Below are positions 6,482 to 32,422 of a stretch of 64,000 nt of DNA, piece after piece. Source of the DNA: Candidatus Cloacimonadota bacterium. GTDB taxonomy: Bacteria > Cloacimonadota > Cloacimonadia > Cloacimonadales > Cloacimonadaceae. The position numbers and the translations under genes are program-made. Below the pieces are notes generated by a model, which saw nothing but the letters and a program-made list of their open reading frames with translations, did no database searches and was not told where the DNA came from. The stretch's first letter is position 1. Every line of letters begins with the position of its first letter. The stretch is from NCBI GenBank assembly GCA_035363155.1, contig DAOSEN010000002.1, forward strand, positions 209,700-273,699, in the 5' to 3' direction.

Positions 6482-6593
6482 GTGGAGCACCTGCCGGTGC
6501 TGTGGGAAGCAAAAGCTTCCCACCCCTGGCGTTGGGGAACACTGAGGTCAGGGACGGCAAGCTTCCGCTTGCCGTGGCGAACGCAGTTCGCAG
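6482..6593. repeat. REP cluster upstream of the RAYT gene
   Basis: Four hairpins in a row: AGCACC-tgcc-GGTGCT, GGGAAGC-aaaa-GCTTCCC, ACGGCAAGC-ttcc-GCTTGCCGT and GCGAAC-gca-GTTCGC. The same first and last modules recur at 7241-7508. Confidence 0.8.
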
Positions 6594-6623
6594 TATCACG
6601 TATAAACCAACAGGGATGATCTT

Positions 6624-7220
6624 GTGAGCGAAGCTGACTACATTGTAGAAAATCATCGCAATCTTCTGCCGCATAAACAGGAGAAAAGCAGCATCACGTT
6701 TATTACCTGGCGGTTGGCATTCACGGTTCCGGCTGAAATCAGAAGTCATCTGAAAGAGCACAATGGTGAACCAGATGGATACTACCTGAAGTATCTGGAG
6801 AAAGATTCCGAGCTTGGCAGCATTCCGGCCCCGGATTTTTCCCTGAATGATCCAGATATCTCCAAGATTATTACTGGGAGTCTGCTGCATGGCAGTGACC
6901 GATTCTACGAATTGCATGCCTATTGTATCATGTCAAATCATGTGCATATTCTCATCCGTGCTCTGAACAATGCCGATGGAAAACGTTTCCAGATCAGCAA
7001 GATAATGCAAAGGATAAAAGGGTTTACAGGTATGCAGATCAACAAAATGAGAGGAACGCAGGGACAAGTGTGGGATCATGTGTACTTTGACCGTAATATC
7101 CGCAACTATGATGACTATTGCCGTGTCGTGGAATACATTCTGAACAACCCCGTAAAGGCGGGGTTGGTTAGTCATCACTCGCAGTGGAAAGATAGCTACT
7201 ATCACGACTATGAGGTATGA
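6624..7220 (+). CDS. REP-associated tyrosine transposase (RAYT; IS200/IS605-like Y1 HUH transposase)
   Basis: NLLPHKQEK..ITFITWR, the HUH motif SNHVHILI, and C-terminal YDDYCRVVEYILNNPVKAGLV. The gene is bracketed by REP-type hairpin clusters. It uses a GTG start. Confidence 0.8.
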   Translation: MSEADYIVENHRNLLPHKQEKSSITFITWRLAFTVPAEIRSHLKEHNGEPDGYYLKYLEKDSELGSIPAPDFSLNDPDISKIITGSLLHGSDRFYELHAYCIMSNHVHILIRALNNADGKRFQISKIMQRIKGFTGMQINKMRGTQGQVWDHVYFDRNIRNYDDYCRVVEYILNNPVKAGLVSHHSQWKDSYYHDYEV

Positions 7221-7240
7221 TATAGAGCCCATATTGGGCT

Positions 7241-7508
7241 GTGGAGCACCTGCCGGTGCTGTGGGAAGCAGAAGCTTCCCACCCCTGGAGGCGGGTGCGT
7301 TAAAACCCATATGGGAAGCAGAAGCTTCCCATCCCTGGAGTTGGGTGCGATGAAACCCATATGGAAAGCAGAGGCTACCCATCCATGGAGTCAAGGGACA
7401 CCGGGAGTCAAGGTGCTGTGGGATGCAGAAGCTCCACACCTATGGAGGCATTGAGCATAGGATCAGGGACGGCAAGCTTCCGCTTGCCGTTGCGAACGCA
7501 GTTCGCAG
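7241..7508. repeat. REP cluster (BIME-like) downstream of the RAYT gene
   Basis: It begins and ends with the same modules as 6482-6593. In between are three or more ~43-bp units built on GGGAAGC-aga-GCTTCCC...CCTGGAG..GGGTGCG..AAACCCATA. Confidence 0.8.
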
Positions 7509-19665: not shown

Positions 19666-19698
19666 GAGATGGAGGCTCCGGCTTCCATCTCTTTTTTT
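19666..19698 (+). terminator. Intrinsic terminator
   Basis: GAGATGGA-ggctccggct-TCCATCTC followed by TTTTTTT. Confidence 0.75.
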
Positions 19699-19699
19699 G

Positions 19700-19775
19700 G
19701 GCTGTCGTCCCGACGGGACTCAAAAAGATTCGGCCTTCAGCCTCGTCGACACGGGGACGTGTCGAATCCAATCCC
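19700..19775. repeat. Hairpin repeat (GTCCC-gac-GGGAC ... TCGACACG-ggga-CGTGTCGAATCC), related to 28790-28872
   Basis: Shared core ..ACTCGT(C/G)GACACG(GGG/AG)ACGTGTC(G/C)AATCC occurs at 19745-19773 and 28850-28872. Confidence 0.6.
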
Positions 19776-25412: not shown

Positions 25413-28319
25413 GTGGAGAACAATATGAAAGTAGATTCAATAAACAAATTCTTAGTAGGAGTCCTCTTCCTGACCCTGTCCTTTGCCTTGGCGGCTCAGA
25501 CTTCCGTCACCACGGTGGAGGACTTGTGGAATGTGAGAAACAACCTGACTGGAACGTACCAGCAGAGCGGGGATATAAATCTGGAAACCACGAATCCCAG
25601 TAAAATCAACGATTGGGATACAGGTACCCTGTACGTCGTTGGGAATATCATCAAATACACCGATGGCTTTGCCTACTATTGCAAGCAAAACATGAGCGAT
25701 AACACCGGTTCTCAAGATCCTGGTACTACCGCTTACTGGACCAAAATGTGGGAAGCCGCCAAAGGCTGGGAACCCATCGGCAGAACTTCCGGCACTGGTT
25801 CATTCCGGGGTGTGTATGATGGCAACAACAAGATCATTTACAACCTGTACATCAATCGTGGCGCTTCCGCTGTAGCGGACAACGTATATCCTACAGACGG
25901 TGAAGACAACAACGGCCTGTTTGGCTATGTCGAGAATACCTCCACTTATAACGTATTCATAAAAAACCTGGGGCTCATCAACCCTAACGTTACTGGACGC
26001 AGAGCGACTGGCTCTCTTGTAGGGCGCGTGCTACTCCCTTTGACAACCCCCGCCCGCTCCTACACGGTATACATTGAAAGATGCTATGCTATACAACAAG
26101 GAGAAGGTACAGCCACGGTAACAGGCTTTGGCGCTACTGGCGGCCTGGTAGGCGCAAACAACAGCAATGCGAAACAAAGGGTTCCCGTAATTCGTTTGTC
26201 TTACGCCAGAGTGACTGTCTCTGCCACGCATCCTACAAACTACACGCCAAACCCCAATGACAGGGTGGGTAATACCTCAGTTTACAATCCCTACAACATT
26301 AAATACGGTGGCTTGGTAGGTTGTAACGAAAACGGTGTGACCCAGGATAGTTTTGCCAGAGGCAATGTCTCTGGAGGCGACCGCGTTGGCGGTCTGGCAG
26401 GATGTACGATCGGTGGTGCGATCTTCCGCAGCTATTCCACTGGGACTGTGACCCGGAACATAGAACCAGGAGGATCGTTACCAAATTACGAAGGCGGTAT
26501 TGGAGGACTGGTGGGTAGAACGTCAGGTTCTCTGCCTCCTGGCTTGGGTGGCACCAACGCCACTGGCTCCTGTGAAAACTGCTTCTGGGATACAGAGACC
26601 TCTAGGATTGCAACCTCACCTGGTGGTACGGGTAAAACAACTACGCAGATGAAAACCCAATCCACTTTCACAAACTGGGATTTCACCAACATCTGGAATA
26701 TCACCAGCGGTATCAACGACGGCTATCCCTTCTTTATCGGTAGCCCGGTGGTGGAGTTCTACTATCGTTCCAAAGCCTCAGGAGACTGGAATAACAAAGA
26801 CAAATGGCAATATACCTCTACTCCTGCCACAGAAACATCATGGGTTGATGCTGTCGTTACCCCGGATGAGAGTAATTCCATCAGCATCCAGATCCGGGTG
26901 AACCATACCATGACCGTCACTCAGGATGTGCGCATCGATGCCACGATCATAGATGCTGGGGGCAGAGTTACTGTTGCCAGCGGTAAAACCCTTTATGTAG
27001 ATAATGGTGTAGGCCCTGATCTTACGGTCAATGGTGTCCTGGAGGTCACGGGAACCTTGGTCGCCGGAATCAATACTACCATACCATTCGGTATCGGTTC
27101 CGAACTGATCTACAATGGCAGTGCAGCGCAAACCACGGGAGACCATCTCTACAGCTCTATCGATACAAACTATGAACCCCCGATCAAAACCCTGCAAGTG
27201 AGCAGACTCACTCTCAATAACTCTGCCGGATTGACATTCACAAACCCAATCGAAATCCTCGAGATTTTCCAGGTACTAGGCGGCAGTTACGCTCTGGAGA
27301 GTGGGGTTCAAATCGATACCGATGGAGTGTATTCACCCACTGTAAAATACTTCAAATTCGACGATACTGGCTACAATATCCTGAACTATTCTGCAGAAGT
27401 ATCTCAACCCGATCTGTATCCAGACTTTGTGGATCGTCAATGGTCGATCACTGGAAACATCAATGATGCATCCTCTGGCAATCGCACCAAACAGATCACA
27501 TTCTATTGGACATCGGTAGATGATCAAGACTTTGACTGGGCAGGTTTAAGCGTAGCTCCTGCAGTATATGCAGGGATCACAAAGCTCACTACTGTTAGCT
27601 ACGATGTTAGCTCCTCTCCACGCAGCATCACAGTCGATTATACTTTCCCCAATAGCAAGGGCGGCAGCAAGGAAACCTTCAAAATCGGCCGGGATGACGA
27701 CCAAACCCTGCCCGTGCAGCTATCTTCCTTTACTGCTATGATCACCGCACAGATGAAAGTCAGGCTGAATTGGGTAACCCAGACCGAAACCAATGTAGCC
27801 GGATTCAGCATCTATCGTGGCACTACTGATGAATTGGGTAATGCAGAGCAGCTAAACGTATTCATTCCCGCCACCAATACTTCTCAGACCCAGTACTATA
27901 TGTTTACCGATGATGAGTTGTATAATAGCGGCACCTATTTTTACTGGCTTGAAAGCAGAGATTTCGATGGCAGCGGTGACCTCTTCGGCCCTGTTACGGT
28001 AGTACTGGAAGTTACAGAAGATAACACTCCGGGAATCCAGATCGTACGCGGCCTGGACAAGATCTATCCTAATCCCTTCAATCCCAGCACTACGATCAAA
28101 TTCGGAGTCACAAATGACTCTCCCACCCGCATCCAGATCTACAATATGCGGGGACAGCTAGTGCGTGACCTGATGGATAGACAGCTCAAAGCCGGGAACT
28201 ACAGCGTGGTGTGGGATGGCAAAGACAACTTGCAACGCAACCTTCCCAGCGGCAACTACTATCTGCGGATGCAGAGTGGTAAAGATGTATTCAATGGCAA
28301 ACTAACCCTGATGAAATAG
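25413..28319 (+). CDS. Secreted GLUG-motif protein with a T9SS C-terminal sorting domain
   Basis: Repeated GGLVG / GGLAG motifs, and TQMKTQSTFTNWDFTNIWNI. The C-terminus is IYPNPFNPSTTIKFGV...IQIYNMRGQLV...GNYYLRMQSG...KLTLMK. The start could instead be the MKVDS codon at 25425. Confidence 0.8.
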   Translation: MENNMKVDSINKFLVGVLFLTLSFALAAQTSVTTVEDLWNVRNNLTGTYQQSGDINLETTNPSKINDWDTGTLYVVGNIIKYTDGFAYYCKQNMSDNTGSQDPGTTAYWTKMWEAAKGWEPIGRTSGTGSFRGVYDGNNKIIYNLYINRGASAVADNVYPTDGEDNNGLFGYVENTSTYNVFIKNLGLINPNVTGRRATGSLVGRVLLPLTTPARSYTVYIERCYAIQQGEGTATVTGFGATGGLVGANNSNAKQRVPVIRLSYARVTVSATHPTNYTPNPNDRVGNTSVYNPYNIKYGGLVGCNENGVTQDSFARGNVSGGDRVGGLAGCTIGGAIFRSYSTGTVTRNIEPGGSLPNYEGGIGGLVGRTSGSLPPGLGGTNATGSCENCFWDTETSRIATSPGGTGKTTTQMKTQSTFTNWDFTNIWNITSGINDGYPFFIGSPVVEFYYRSKASGDWNNKDKWQYTSTPATETSWVDAVVTPDESNSISIQIRVNHTMTVTQDVRIDATIIDAGGRVTVASGKTLYVDNGVGPDLTVNGVLEVTGTLVAGINTTIPFGIGSELIYNGSAAQTTGDHLYSSIDTNYEPPIKTLQVSRLTLNNSAGLTFTNPIEILEIFQVLGGSYALESGVQIDTDGVYSPTVKYFKFDDTGYNILNYSAEVSQPDLYPDFVDRQWSITGNINDASSGNRTKQITFYWTSVDDQDFDWAGLSVAPAVYAGITKLTTVSYDVSSSPRSITVDYTFPNSKGGSKETFKIGRDDDQTLPVQLSSFTAMITAQMKVRLNWVTQTETNVAGFSIYRGTTDELGNAEQLNVFIPATNTSQTQYYMFTDDELYNSGTYFYWLESRDFDGSGDLFGPVTVVLEVTEDNTPGIQIVRGLDKIYPNPFNPSTTIKFGVTNDSPTRIQIYNMRGQLVRDLMDRQLKAGNYSVVWDGKDNLQRNLPSGNYYLRMQSGKDVFNGKLTLMK

Positions 28320-28340
28320 TCAAACTCAAGCTATATACCA

Positions 28341-28372
28341 AAACCCCGGGAGTTTATTCTCGGGGTTTTTTT
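28341..28372 (+). terminator. Intrinsic terminator
   Basis: AAACCCCG-ggagtttattct-CGGGGTTT followed by TTTTG. Confidence 0.8.
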
Positions 28373-28403
28373 GTTTGATCGCTTGATTTTATCATAGCGG
28401 TCT

Positions 28404-28776
28404 GTAACATAGGCTTTTAGCCTGTTGTGCTGTGGGGTTTTCTAACCCCGCGACAATGTAACATAGGCTTTTAGCCTGTTGTGCTGTGGGGTTTTCTAAC
28501 TCCGCGACAATGTAACATAGGCTTTTAGCCTGTTGTGCTGTGGGGTTTTCTAACTCCGCGACAATGTAACATAGGCTTTTAGCCTGTTGTGCTGTGGGGT
28601 TTTCTAACCCCGCGACAATGTAACATAGGCTTTTAGCCTGTTGTGCTGTGGGGTTTTCTAACCCCGCGACAATGTAACATAGGCTTTTAGCCTGTTGTGC
28701 TGTGGGGTTTTCTAACCCCGCGACAATGTAACATAGGCTTTTAGCCTGTTGTGCTGTGGGGTTTTCTAACCCCGCG
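28404..28776. repeat. Tandem array of 7 x 54 bp (last copy 49 bp); each unit carries two hairpins
   Basis: The unit is GTAACATAGGCTTTTAGCCTGTTGTGCTGTGGGGTTTTCTAACCCCGCGACAAT. Copies start at 28404, 28458, 28512, 28566, 28620, 28674 and 28728. Copies 2 and 3 carry C to T (AACTCC), which keeps a G-U pair in the second stem. Confidence 0.95.
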
Positions 28777-28789
28777 TTTTTGCTGGATC

Positions 28790-28872
28790 GCAAGCGTCCC
28801 CGTTTGCTACAGACCCGAAGGGGCACAAAAGACACGTCCTCCGGACTCGTGGACACGAGACGTGTCCAATCC
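28790..28872. repeat. Hairpin repeat related to 19700-19775
   Basis: GGACACG-aga-CGTGTCCAATCC and its upstream GC-rich hairpins share a core with 19745-19773. Confidence 0.55.
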
Positions 28873-28906
28873 TCAGAGGTTCCTCTGGTTGGAAAACCAG
28901 AGGATA

Positions 28907-28931
28907 CAACAGGCTAAAAAGCCTATGTTAC
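28907..28931. repeat. Inverted partial copy of the 54-bp unit
   Basis: CAACAGGCTAAAAAGCCTATGTTAC is the reverse complement of GTAACATAGGCTTTT(T)AGCCTGTTG. It overlaps the last codons of the antiporter gene. Confidence 0.85.
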
Positions 28932-30140
28932 GAGTTCCGGTGCTTTTTGTATGACTGCCGGGTCGTGGCGCACCAGCAAGCGCTGCCCGTAGCGCTTGAT
29001 CAGGATCAATCCCAATGGCGCACTCAGGCAGATGGACATCACCGCCAGGGCCAGGATCACTCCTCCTTCTGCCACACCCAGGGCCAGGGGAATGGAGCCC
29101 AGAGCAGCCTGCACCGTGGCTTTGGGCAAATATGAGATCACGCAGAAGAGCTTTTCCCGCCGGTTCAATCTGGAGAAAGCAGTAGCCAGCAGCACTCCTG
29201 CCGATCTCGCCATCAGGCCTATACAGATCACGAGCAAGCCTTTTAGTCCTGCTTCCTTCAAACTGGCAGGATTCAGAGACATCCCGATCAAGACAAACAG
29301 CACAATCTCCGCAAAGATCCAGATTTTTCCCAGCTTGGCGGAGATCTCTGCGGCAATCTTGTTTTGCCGTTCGAAGAGGATGTACCCGATCGTCATTGCC
29401 CCCAGAAACGAGGCAATCTGATAATGATCACCGATTTCGATCATCACCAGGCACAAACCCAGTAATACGATGATCTTTTCGGTAGCCCGGATTTGTTTGA
29501 TCTTGTGAAAAAACCACACGATAAAGAAGCCAAATCCCAAGCCCAGCAGGATGCCCATAATGATCGAAAAAGGGATTTGCAAAAGGTCGCTGGCGCCAAA
29601 ATTTCTGCCCCCGCTGTAGATCCGGGAAAACACCGAAAACATGGTGATTGCAAATACATCATCCAAGGATGCCCCTGCCAGCACAATCGTGGGCACTTGT
29701 TTATTCGTGCCATAGCCCATTTCTTTGAGGTTTAGCATGGAGGGTACGATCACGGCTGGTGACACTGCCGACAGCATAAATGCTGCCATACCGGATACCG
29801 CATAGGGGAAATGAAAGATGCCGCGAAAAGCAAAGAACAAGATGCTGCCTTCCGCCAGACACGGCAACGCCGCCATCAGCAAAGACGTGATCCCCGTTTG
29901 TTTGAGGATTTTGCGGTTGATTCCCAAGCCTGCCCGCAGCAGAATCACCAAGAGGGCAAAGGTCTTCAGGAAAGGCTCCACGCCTGCCAGGGAAGGGGGT
30001 AAACGCTGCTCCAGCAGCAATCCTAAAAGGATACCGGATGCCAACATTCCCAATACCTGGGGCAAGCCCAGGCGCCCCGCTAAGCGGCTGCCCAACCACC
30101 CCATCAGCAGGATGGCGGCAAAAACAGTGCTAAATGACAT
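28923..30140 (-). CDS. Cation:proton antiporter (CPA family Na+/H+ exchanger)
   Basis: 405 aa, 11-12 TM segments, typical sodium/hydrogen-exchanger-like composition. Confidence 0.7.
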   Translation of the reverse strand: MSFSTVFAAILLMGWLGSRLAGRLGLPQVLGMLASGILLGLLLEQRLPPSLAGVEPFLKTFALLVILLRAGLGINRKILKQTGITSLLMAALPCLAEGSILFFAFRGIFHFPYAVSGMAAFMLSAVSPAVIVPSMLNLKEMGYGTNKQVPTIVLAGASLDDVFAITMFSVFSRIYSGGRNFGASDLLQIPFSIIMGILLGLGFGFFIVWFFHKIKQIRATEKIIVLLGLCLVMIEIGDHYQIASFLGAMTIGYILFERQNKIAAEISAKLGKIWIFAEIVLFVLIGMSLNPASLKEAGLKGLLVICIGLMARSAGVLLATAFSRLNRREKLFCVISYLPKATVQAALGSIPLALGVAEGGVILALAVMSICLSAPLGLILIKRYGQRLLVRHDPAVIQKAPELVT

Positions 30141-30549
30141 GTAAATCTCCTTCGTATATTGTAGGAGTCATCAGCACTAGGCGGTTTTGGCGAACTCCAT
30201 CACCAGAATATTATAGATTCAAGTGGATCACCTATTTTAGCCTTGATTTTTGTCAAGAATTCCATTGTTGTACCACATTGTTGCTCCATTGCTTCCATTG
30301 TCAAGAATTTGTAAAACTATAAAGTGACAACGAAAACTGCAAATTGTGCAGCGAAATCTGCAAACTGCCGCATCGTAGGATATCCTTACTCATCCTTTCC
30401 CAGACCCTTTTAGGTAGTCTTTGACAGGATTTCTGCAAGTCACATCTCGGATTTCTACTTGAATAAGCACTATTGAATTGGGATTATCTGTAAATGGCTC
30501 TCTGCATTCTCTTGGTTCTGTACTTTCGGCGCTACGGCGAGCGCCGGTA

Positions 30550-32422
30550 GTGCGCCTGTGCGCATTGCAGATCAGATCGGTGGAAGTCCGATTCAGGGTA
30601 ACGTCAAGCCCTGTAGCTGAAGGTAACTGCGTCACCGTGAGGTGGGGTGGAGAGCAACCGGAAGCGAACGACCAGTCCGTAGGATAACGAACTCGATTCG
30701 GCATGATAAGCTGTCGAGCCTACTACCGGAAGGTGAAGACTAAGACCTGGAAAGAGCCAACGGGTGGAACTGAAACGCATTTCCAGGAAAACCTGATCGG
30801 TTGAATGACGTAAACGATAGAAACCAGATCAGGAGCTATCTTGTGGTTGGAGACGGAATGGTCAGTAAGGTATGCAGTGTAAAGCAGGGAGACCTGCCGA
30901 TGGACAAGAGAGATCGGCAGGAGTCAGAGTGCTCATAGTAGCGATGATCTTCGGGACAACATAACCCGAAAGGAGTCAAGGGGCACAGGAAAACAGATTT
31001 TGAAAGGAGTACAGATGGAAGACCAACGATCGTCAGTGCCAGAAAAGGCTAAACAAGAACGAGAGATCCCCGCCCAATGGGCATGGGTCGAACCATTGGT
31101 ATGGACTGACAAAATGCTGGCAGCTCTCGGCAAGGGAGTCAAAGGTGGAAAATGGTTCAGTCTGATCGACAAGGTGTGGTTTCTACCAAACCTGGAATCA
31201 GCCTGGAAGCAAGTGGCGGCAAACCGTGGTAGTGCAGGTATTGATAACATCAGTATCAAGCATTACAAACGGCACGCTGCAGAACGTCTGAACCGAACGT
31301 CTGAGCTGCTTAGGCAAGACAAATATCGTCCAGCCGGTGTAAAACGGGTATGGATAGATAAAGCCGGCAGCAAAGACAAACGTCCATTGGGGATACCAAC
31401 TGTCACTGACAGAGTGGTACAAACCGCACTACGCAATGTCATAGAACCAATCTTTGAGCAAGACTTCTGCGAATATAGCTATGGCTTCCGTCCCCGAAGA
31501 TCATGTAAAGACGCACTCAGAAGAGTCGATGGACTACTGAAGCAAGGATACAGATATGTGGTGGACGCCGATATCAAGGGGTATTTTGACAATATCCCCC
31601 AAGATAAGCTGATGCTATTAGTAGAGAAGAAGATCGCTGACAGCCGCATTCTGGCCTTGCTGAATCTTTATCTTTCACAGAAAGTAATAGATACAGCAGC
31701 AAGCTGGACACCGGAAGCAGGCACACCTCAAGGAGCGGTGATCAGCCCTCTATTGGCCAACATCTACCTTGATCCTCTGGATTGGCTGATGCTGAACAAA
31801 GGGTACCCAATGACACGCTATGCGGATGATTTTGTGATCCAATGCAAGACAGAAGAAGAAGCAACACAAGCCTTGGAAACAATCCGAATCTGGACACAGG
31901 AAGCAGGTCTAACCCTGCATCCAACGAAGACGAAGATCGTGGATACTGAAACTGATATCTTTGAGTTCCTGGGATACATGTTCAAGCAGGGGATGAAGTT
32001 CCCTTCAGACAAAAGTATCAAGAAGTTTAGAGATAACATCAGGAAACACACCAAACGCTGTAACGCACACAGCCTACAAACCATCATCGAGCGGATCAAA
32101 CCGATCCAAAGAGGATGGTTCGAGTACTTCAAACACGCTCACAAAAACAGTTTCCCCGGGGAAGACGGTTGGGTAAGGCGCAGGATTCGCAGCATCCTCA
32201 AGAAACACGAGAAACGCAGAGGAATAGCTACAATGCAAGATAACTTCCGCTATCCCAATGCCATCTTTGATAAACATGGGTTCTTCTCTATGGTCAGAGC
32301 CCATGCAGAATTATGCCAGTCTCTTAGATGAGATACCTGTTTTCTGGAGAGCCGTATGCGGGAGAACCGCACGTACGGTTCGGAGGGAGGGGAGCCAGTA
32401 ATGGGAACTCCCCTACCCCTAT
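30550..32422 (+). mobile_element. Group II intron (bacterial IIC-like), about 1.87 kb, with an internal RT/maturase ORF
   Basis: 5' GTGCG at 30550, 3 nt after a hairpin. Domain V GAGCCGTATGCGGGAGAACCGCACGTACGGTTC at 32349-32381. The domain VI stem has a bulged A at 32415, 7 nt before the ...CCCCTAT 3' end at 32422. Confidence 0.85.
31000..32331 (+). CDS. Group II intron reverse transcriptase/maturase (no endonuclease domain)
   Basis: RT blocks RPLGIPTVTDRVVQ, QGAVISPLLANIYL and YADDFVIQC. The X/maturase region is PIQRGWFEYFKHA. The protein ends without an HNH motif. Confidence 0.9.
   Translation: MKGVQMEDQRSSVPEKAKQEREIPAQWAWVEPLVWTDKMLAALGKGVKGGKWFSLIDKVWFLPNLESAWKQVAANRGSAGIDNISIKHYKRHAAERLNRTSELLRQDKYRPAGVKRVWIDKAGSKDKRPLGIPTVTDRVVQTALRNVIEPIFEQDFCEYSYGFRPRRSCKDALRRVDGLLKQGYRYVVDADIKGYFDNIPQDKLMLLVEKKIADSRILALLNLYLSQKVIDTAASWTPEAGTPQGAVISPLLANIYLDPLDWLMLNKGYPMTRYADDFVIQCKTEEEATQALETIRIWTQEAGLTLHPTKTKIVDTETDIFEFLGYMFKQGMKFPSDKSIKKFRDNIRKHTKRCNAHSLQTIIERIKPIQRGWFEYFKHAHKNSFPGEDGWVRRRIRSILKKHEKRRGIATMQDNFRYPNAIFDKHGFFSMVRAHAELCQSLR

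Follow-up and report, generated by a model that had tools for sequence, protein, structure and literature searches.

A tandem array between convergent genes of a Cloacimonadota genome very probably belongs to a mosaic family of REP/BIME-type repeats

A 64-kb stretch of a draft Cloacimonadota genome (2.93 Mb, 39 contigs), hereafter called the window, contains seven head-to-tail 54-bp units at positions 28404 to 28776, which form the larger part of a 528-bp element lying between two convergent genes. We conclude that this array is very probably a cluster of repetitive extragenic palindromes (REPs), of the type described as bacterial interspersed mosaic elements (BIMEs) and REP doublets forming hairpins (REPINs). 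[quoted passage not shown]

Tandem Repeats Finder placed the array at 28403-28776 with a period of 54, 6.9 copies, 99% matches, no indels and a score of 734, while the next-best tandem array of the window scored at most 199. On inspection of the sequence, the plus strand reads (A-B-AAT) x 6 followed by a final A-B (28404..28776). Module A, a 25-nt REP (GTAACATAGGCTTTTAGCCTGTTGT), starts at 28404 + 54n for n = 0-6 (28404, 28458, 28512, 28566, 28620, 28674 and 28728), there are no unique spacers, and module B is present as a variant, GCTGTGGGGTTTTCTAACCCCGCGAC, that is confined to the array. The sole polymorphism is a C to T change that sets copies 2 and 3 (AACTCC) apart from the others (AACCCC) and by which a G-C pair of the second hairpin becomes G-T. 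The 54-bp unit forms two hairpins on either strand (-12.1 kcal/mol as DNA, z = -4.2), and none of 200 shuffled sequences was as stable. The identical seven-copy array is found in an independent public assembly (ENA ERZ795032, NODE_185); the Logan contig used for a copy-number comparison at this locus ends within the array.

Beyond the array lies module C (28784..28872, plus strand), an 89-nt REPIN-like sequence in which a closing stem, TGGAT/ATCC, surrounds four hairpins; our covariance model for C, R1, matches it at 28779-28877 with 88 bits (E = 3e-20). It is followed on the minus strand by an inverted B module of another variant, CCTCTGGTTTTCCAACCAGAGG (28882..28903), and by an inverted A module (GTAACATAGGCTTTTTAGCCTGTTGT on that strand; 28906..28931) with one additional loop base compared with the A of the array. 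In blastn, positions 28879-28931 are 96% identical to C4:1700-1807 and C1:54423-54471 (C1 and C4 are contigs of the source genome), where the same B variant occurs. Since the array is continued by a C module, an inverted B and an inverted A, 28404-28931 is a single mosaic element composed of (A-B) x 7, the REPIN-like C and an inverted B-A arm. The fold of the 528 nucleotides has a z of -13, and in it the element is closed by a long hairpin, formed by pairing between the inverted A and the seventh A of the array.

The inverted A overlaps the 3' end of a minus-strand gene of the Na_H_Exchanger family (28923-30140). Its first nine nucleotides, GTA ACA TAG, the reverse complement of GTAACATAG, encode the final Val-Thr-stop of this antiporter, whose open reading frame ends at 28923. 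An earlier reading of this DNA from its letters alone, the sequence-only reading, had already described the seven spacer-less units, the two hairpins of each, the C to T change and the distal inverted copy of the first 25 nt over the last antiporter codons, and all four descriptions hold.

A dispersed family with a fixed order of modules

A blastn census of the whole genome with module consensus sequences, together with an inspection of the A loci, revealed a mosaic family of ∼42 loci. Module A (25 nt: a GTAAC tag and a hairpin with a 7-bp stem and a TTT loop) occurs in 41-43 copies, and module B (a GT-purine tag, a variable GC-rich stem of 9-11 bp and a conserved apex, GGTTTTCNAACC) in ∼34. 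Module C consists of C1 (TGGATCGCAAACGTCCYCGTTTGCGGAG-ACCCGAAGGGG-CTCG, 32 copies) and C2 (GGCCTCCGGCC-TCGTGGACACGGGGACGTGTCCAATCC, 41 copies), and as a whole is present in ∼48 copies. Across the family, order and orientation are always A-B-C1-C2. Nearly all loci are intergenic, in 12 convergent, 23 tandem and 6 divergent spacers, and the modules stand in either orientation relative to the genes. A second C module lies in the window itself, after a terminator-like hairpin (19693..19774, plus strand; R1 61.8 bits, E = 1.3e-13); it is degenerate at its 5' end.

At eight or more loci, multiplication in tandem has proceeded module by module: A x 3 with a period of 23 (C1:326661 and C1:350658), A-B x 2-3 with periods of 55 and 56 (C4:35823 and C4:1727), A-B-C x 4 with a period of 157 (C1:24545), C x 5 with a period of 165 (C1:222030) and C2 x 3 with a period of 47. 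At C1:222030-222918 each of the five tandem C modules has an insert of ∼70 nt between C1 and C2, and the array gives rise to a spurious 186-aa open reading frame. A 100-N scaffold gap lies inside the A-B tandem array of C4 (C4:1597-1700), so that the number of units there is not fixed by the assembly.

The sequence-only reading had stated that its REP interpretation would fail if the unit were unique to this locus with an invariant copy number. In the genome-wide count uniqueness is true of the B stem variant only, which has no copy elsewhere in the genome, and the family as such is dispersed. The array is a local amplification of one A-B unit, because its B variant is absent from the rest of the genome, and the C to T change shared by two adjacent copies indicates that units were added stepwise. 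Moreover, the 3' GT of A and the bases that follow it precede B as a GTAA, GTAC or GTGC tag, so that both hairpins of A-B are tagged and the pair is a head-to-tail dimer. Inverted arrangements also occur, and at C1:279130-279205 A-B-A' forms a perfect 76-bp palindrome.

Compensatory changes in the hairpins

The sequence-only reading had suggested covariation analysis, and compensatory changes were found in the hairpins of all three modules. Among 30 distinct A sequences from the source genome and a relative, G027, the flanks GTA(A/G)CAT and CTGTTGT are invariant, and the stem between them exists in seven complementary types (AGGCT/AGCCT, AGACT/AGTCT, AGTCT/AGACT, AGGTT/AACCT, AGGAT/ATCCT, AGCTT/AAGCT and AGATT/AATCT). 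As many as 98.6% of the cells of this stem are paired, 21 of them with changes on both sides, a result reached by none of 500 shuffles. The tag GTA(A/G)C on the 5' side of the stem is the same in 30/30 sequences; it is mostly GTAAC in the source genome and GTAGC in many copies of G027, G104 and G065. Half of the A copies of G027 carry the canonical GTAG tag.

For B, the 9-bp stem is paired in 93.8% of cells and contains five covarying pairs, with 32 cells changed on both sides (again 0/500 shuffles). An alignment and fold of 17 genomic copies of C yielded five compensated pairs. An alignment of the half-sites showed that the first and last hairpins of C are diverged inverted copies of one ∼28-nt REP, and it is for this reason that we call C a REPIN-like doublet. 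In this small sample, departures from pairing in C were G-T and A-C about equally often (5 versus 7), which fits evolution at the DNA level; a strand-specific RNA signal was not seen.

Distribution among relatives and copy-number change

The A repeat was detected in 2/61 close relatives and in 1/24 species of its own genus. In the taxonomic family as a whole it is present in 15/98 genomes and 5/11 genera, with up to 150 copies. Within the genus, 17/24 species carry the C module, which reaches 50 or more copies; outside the family it hardly occurs. Such patchiness is as expected for a mobile or lineage-specific repeat. Tandem A arrays recur in other genomes, with a period of 23 nt again in G069 and of 41 nt in G104.

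An exact-pattern scan of public genome contigs gave a single match, a 2.4-kb contig from another metagenome (L001, JAKQNZ010000002.1), and the same scan of public metagenome contigs matched only the source genome itself. L001 is 98% identical to C4:54-1833 and has (A-B) x 1 where C4 has (A-B) x 2 or more before the scaffold gap. This suggests a change in copy number at the sister A-B array, although tandem repeats may be collapsed when short reads are assembled. The contig is binned in a metagenome-assembled genome of another genus (g11), yet given its identity to C4 it is probably a mis-binned contig from a strain of the source species.

RAYT genes and the repeats that bracket them

In three other genera, A-type repeats stand on both sides of an orthologous RAYT gene (G027, locus L044; G104, L086; G069, L087). 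These A-associated RAYTs are 48-50% identical between genera and their flanks are A-B-B'-A' units; in G027 the RAYT stop codon lies inside a GTAAC tag. C modules, in antisense orientation, are found on both sides of RAYT genes in the congeners G001 (L018), G015 (L032), G013 (L035), G020, G006 and G029, with four modules upstream and two downstream in G015, and four on each side with a period of 117 in G013. More generally, 25 of the 29 RAYT homologues examined from this taxonomic order have repeats common to both flanks (22 direct, 3 inverted). These flank repeats are rich in hairpins, mostly private to their own RAYT, and many begin with GTAC, GTAG or GTAA (loci L014-L085). The mere presence of RAYT homologues, in 37/61 relatives against 2/61 for A, was uninformative before the RAYT clades were separated. 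In a maximum-likelihood tree of 28 RAYTs, the RAYT of the window falls within the C-bracketed clade (support 98/97) and the A-associated RAYT belongs to the other major clade; the two proteins share 30% identity.

The RAYT gene of the window (6624..7220, plus strand) has the HUH and tyrosine motifs (Pfam Y1_Tnp, E = 3.5e-8; NCBIfam REP_Tyr_transpos 78.6 bits, cut-off 80) and is situated 21 kb from the array. By tblastn it is single-copy, and it is the sole RAYT of the assembly. Upstream of it is a hairpin composite, a private repeat termed 'R' (6482..6620, plus strand; blastn), with one GGTGCTGTGGGA and a weak antisense match to C (E = 0.03). Downstream is a second copy of the composite with its first hairpin triplicated (7221..7508, plus strand; blastn, and Tandem Repeats Finder 7262-7392, period 50), matched by R1 on the minus strand with E = 0.002. 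The matches of the two flanks to the C model are thus weak (E = 0.002-0.03), yet they share the antisense orientation and a similar four-hairpin layout with the C modules at the RAYT genes of relatives.

The sequence-only reading had proposed that the array is an amplified REP variant recognised by the Y1 transposase of the window. That it is a REP variant tied to RAYTs is borne out by the 41-43 dispersed, covarying A copies and by the A and C repeats around RAYT genes of relatives. Recognition by the RAYT at 6624-7220 is another matter, and an explanation in which this enzyme read GTGCTGTGGG, as a tag GTGC(T) and a stem foot GTGGG, and built the array appears improbable, even if it keeps more weight than the other alternatives considered below. 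Its starting point was correctly observed. Genome counts agree that the decamer GTGCTGTGGG precedes a hairpin both in the array (seven copies) and in three repeats of the RAYT flanks, and that the three genomic copies of GGTGCTGTGGGA are all at the RAYT. By position the decamer corresponds to a tag and the first stem bases, the part that the E. coli RAYT, TnpA-REP, reads (PMC3333891). Furthermore, the B variant that bears it is the most amplified one, the enzyme has no other RAYT beside it in the assembly, and the arrays of relatives are densest right beside RAYT genes.

Against this, the decamer comprises the A/B junction and the variable stem of the array's own B variant, and the remaining ∼27 B copies have at most 8 nt in common with the RAYT flanks; at the three other genomic sites of the decamer the sequence is unrelated. 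A 10-mer in common with the RAYT flanks is present in about 4% of 63-nt segments drawn at random from the genome, and the link to the RAYT was spotted post hoc. Past the decamer, the hairpins of the array and of the RAYT flanks are unrelated. Finally, the repeats of this RAYT have not spread from its locus, and the enzyme is of the C-associated clade. We regard a putative functional link between array and RAYT through the decamer as unsupported.

Two other Y1_Tnp matches in the genome are IS200-like TnpA genes, neither of them flanked by A, B or C. One encodes a 145-aa protein with a Y1_Tnp score of 104 bits (C8:133140-133900; L040 1489-2260). After it comes a hairpin with a GTAG tag, GTAGCGACGGGTTT(T)AAACCCGGCG, in four copies, three of them direct and one inverted; its apex is like that of module B, and the whole may represent a further small REPtron-like unit of the source genome.

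The element as a REP/BIME-type cluster

The features that define REPs, BIMEs and REPINs have been set out before (PMC3733652, PMC3116915, PMC5581495), and the family displays a palindrome in the expected range of 20-40 bp (25 nt for A) with compensatory changes, an unpaired GTAG-like tag, many extragenic copies and clustering in mosaics and tandems. Bracketing of a RAYT by A or C repeats is present in relatives and not in the source genome. REPIN organisation is seen in the inverted ends of C, in the seventh A with the inverted A and in the A-B-A' palindrome; the seven-unit array is head-to-tail and is thus not itself a REPIN.

Several observations weigh against the assignment of the array to such a system. 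The RAYT of the window is flanked by a different repeat that, by blastn, is nearly confined to its own locus, and a RAYT of the A clade was not found in the source genome by tblastn with the A-associated RAYT or with Pfam Y1_Tnp, in a draft where a gap could hide one. Among the relatives searched there was no clean empty site: the closest antiporter orthologue is only 66% identical and has different neighbours. In this orthologue, from G004, the alignment stops at residue 392, and the sequence downstream of it is without A, B or C. Neither a target-site duplication nor a conserved insertion target was seen. Moreover, the orientation of the elements is unbiased with respect to GC skew (Fisher p = 0.5), so that a lagging-strand signature of single-strand transposition is not visible, in a genome where the GC skew is weak.

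Comparison with known systems

The REP/BIME repeats of E. coli and their RAYT, TnpA-REP, together termed the 'REPtron', are reportedly also the subject of work by Nunvar et al. in 2010. Tagged intergenic hairpins, mosaics, variable tandem units as in BIME-2 and a bracketed HUH/Y1 gene are common to the E. coli system (Ton-Hoang et al. 2012, PMC3333891) and to the one described here, and tandem reiteration of REPs and BIMEs and the REPtron architecture have been described (PMC3733652). Unlike the E. coli REPtron, the present repeats are from Cloacimonadota, carry a GTAAC or GTAGC tag on a very short 7-bp stem, and fuse three or more unrelated families in the order A-B-C. Moreover, in relatives they flank the RAYT as direct and not inverted composites, and A is without a cognate RAYT in the assembly.

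The REPIN-RAYT systems of Pseudomonas and Enterobacteria (Bertels & Rainey 2011, PMC3116915; Bertels et al. 2017, PMC5581495) resemble the present one in their inverted doublets that fold into long hairpins, in RAYT genes flanked by their own repeats and in tens of copies; the counterparts here are module C, A-B-A' at C1:279130, A-B-B'-A' in G027 and the seventh A with the inverted A. However, REPIN-RAYT systems are described as vertically inherited and mostly proteobacterial, whereas the A family is patchy (15/98 genomes, 5/11 genera, 1/24 congeners), lives apart from its own RAYT clade in the source genome and has prominent long head-to-tail arrays of half-REPINs. There is also a resemblance to the superfamily of GTAG-tagged REPs (Di Nocera et al. 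2013, PMC3733652): on one side of the stem-loop stands an unpaired tag of four nucleotides, dimers may be head-head, tail-tail or head-tail, and the repeats are located in unidirectional or convergent spacers and overlap with gene ends. For GTAG repeats, that survey lists Proteobacteria, Cyanobacteria, Chloroflexi and the PVC group but not Cloacimonadota, and the tag in the source genome is mostly GTAA.

Members of IS200/IS605 also use an HUH/Y1 superfamily enzyme that recognises a single-stranded hairpin and an adjacent short cleavage motif; however, in them the hairpins enclose the transposase and everything moves together, whereas the repeats described here are non-autonomous and far outnumber the gene. 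The BOX elements of Streptococcus pneumoniae have the structure boxA-boxB(n)-boxC, in which the copy number of the internal module varies between loci and strains, and to our knowledge they have no transposase. They are likewise modular, intergenic and hairpin-rich, but their sequences are unrelated, and in the present family every module can be multiplied.

Proposed origin of the array

By analogy with REP/BIME, the family would consist of short non-autonomous DNAs on whose single-stranded hairpins HUH tyrosine transposases of the RAYT type act by cutting and joining. An element of this kind may have inserted between the two convergent genes, replacing the last codons of the antiporter, and its left A-B arm would then have multiplied in place, unit by unit, seeded by the 25-nt A repeats. 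As side effects, transcripts of the antiporter would probably have 3' ends rich in hairpins, and transcription of the plus strand would meet a terminator-like stop.

Cleavage and joining by TnpA-REP of E. coli have been demonstrated in vitro, and explicit models of tandem BIME amplification have been put forward (PMC3333891). For the array, we give slippage or unequal recombination about an even chance of being the route of amplification; RAYT-catalysed addition is a possible but less favoured route, and any other mechanism is rather unlikely. The slight preference for slippage or unequal recombination over catalysed addition follows from the absence of the A-associated RAYT clade from the genome.

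A more daring idea, which we hold to be slightly less probable still than plain recognition of the decamer by the window RAYT, is that A-B is an orphan REP population cross-mobilised by this resident C-clade RAYT. The enzyme would read the hybrid B variant, whose tag and stem foot, GTGCT-GTGGG, copy the repeat at the enzyme's own flanks, and would extend the array in cis by 54-nt units in the rolling-circle-like manner proposed for BIMEs. If true, the capture of a foreign repeat family by a RAYT would be naturally recorded in the array, and a single enzyme would move three unrelated families of hairpins by means of the fixed A-B-C mosaics.

Alternative explanations at the level of RNA, protein binding and coding

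The array could be primarily an RNA element maintained for its function as such, be it a structured small RNA in multiple copies or, between the convergent genes, a multi-hairpin 3' untranslated region or terminator-insulator. Folding is strong on both strands (unit z about -4, whole element z = -13), in the terminator scan the last B hairpin and its TTTTT score as terminator-like for the plus strand, the antiporter gene leads directly into the element without another terminator of its own, and elsewhere REPs stabilise upstream mRNA (background in PMC3733652). We nevertheless consider this quite unlikely. The plus-strand gene is already strongly terminated upstream of the array, family members stand in either gene orientation and also in divergent spacers, and multiplication by modules and bracketing of transposase genes are the behaviour of a DNA element. 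Moreover, G-U is not in excess over A-C on either strand, and the copy number at the sister locus appears variable. The Rfam comparison that the sequence-only reading had called for returned no match to the element: with Rfam 15, nothing better than chance was obtained on 28300-29000 at E <= 10, and at the gathering threshold the whole window contained only a fluoride riboswitch and a group II intron.

Far less probable is an array of iteron-like sites for a DNA-binding protein of replication, partition, nucleoid or transcriptional control. The seven evenly spaced, identical sites would suit it, and E. coli BIMEs bind IHF and gyrase (background in PMC3733652 and PMC3333891), but a period of 54 bp lacks the helical phasing of typical iterons and there is no replication or partition gene nearby. 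In addition, the modules occur singly at ∼40 other loci, where stems are variable and pairing is conserved, which points to recognition of a hairpin and not of a duplex sequence. The sequence-only reading had entertained both an iteron array and a structured multi-copy RNA, and both are disfavoured.

We give practically no credence to the 154-aa minus-strand open reading frame (28392-28856) as a real repeat protein: it stays open across the array because 54 bp are 18 codons (18 x 3), it starts within module C and crosses the non-coding modules A, B and C, which have no fixed frame or strand at their other loci, the sister A-B arrays have periods of 55 and 56 bp that break the frame, and the stems covary at the nucleotide level without codon-like conservation.

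Three further candidates were rejected. For a miniature inverted-repeat transposable element, inverted A ends are present, but the flanks (..cggtct / gagttcc..) show no duplication and no DDE transposon with such ends was seen. For a CRISPR array, the seven 'spacers' are identical and are themselves a hairpin of the family, and the only Rfam CRISPR-DR match has E = 1.1. Finally, ARAGORN found no tRNA or tmRNA, a possibility raised by the T-loop-like apex of B.

Neighbouring features

The gene on the left of the element (25413-28319, plus strand) encodes a surface protein with a type IX secretion system tail (Pfam Por_Secre_tail and FlgD_ig). Its intrinsic terminator, a 13-pair stem and a T run at 28340..28379 (plus strand; terminator scan), lies outside the element, in agreement with the earlier description of the array as standing between convergent genes past a strong terminator. 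The antiporter gene on the right (28923..30140, minus strand; Pfam Na_H_Exchanger, E = 4.6e-38) has its 3' end supplied by the element and is otherwise a neighbour, not a part of it. A fluoride riboswitch (Rfam RF01734, 54.9 bits) at 30155-30213 on the minus strand lies directly upstream of this gene, which is therefore probably fluoride-regulated. Just upstream of the riboswitch-antiporter unit is a group II intron (30527-32422) with a reverse transcriptase/maturase open reading frame at 31000-32331 and an Rfam match to domains V-VI at 32347-32422; the arrangement is the same in an independent assembly (L053).

Another dispersed repeat of ∼70-100 bp, unrelated to A, B and C, is present in ∼15 copies in the genome. 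Its sites are at L001 1612-1722, C10:124467-124541, C4:54009-54104 and at least 12 further positions.

Implications

The assignment removes a false lead, as the array is very probably not a new RNA, a CRISPR-like array or a repeat protein, and the three module consensus sequences with the covariance model for C provide a usable annotation for ∼42 loci. What is known of REPs and RAYTs is mostly proteobacterial; here, in an uncultured phylum, unrelated families are fused in a fixed order and single modules are multiplied head-to-tail. Arrays of this sort lend themselves, as natural substrates, to tests of the models of BIME amplification by RAYTs, which are still unproven, and they are also fast-evolving markers for strain typing in anaerobic-digester communities. 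Finally, the A family indicates that high copy numbers of a repeat can be found even in the absence of its cognate RAYT clade.

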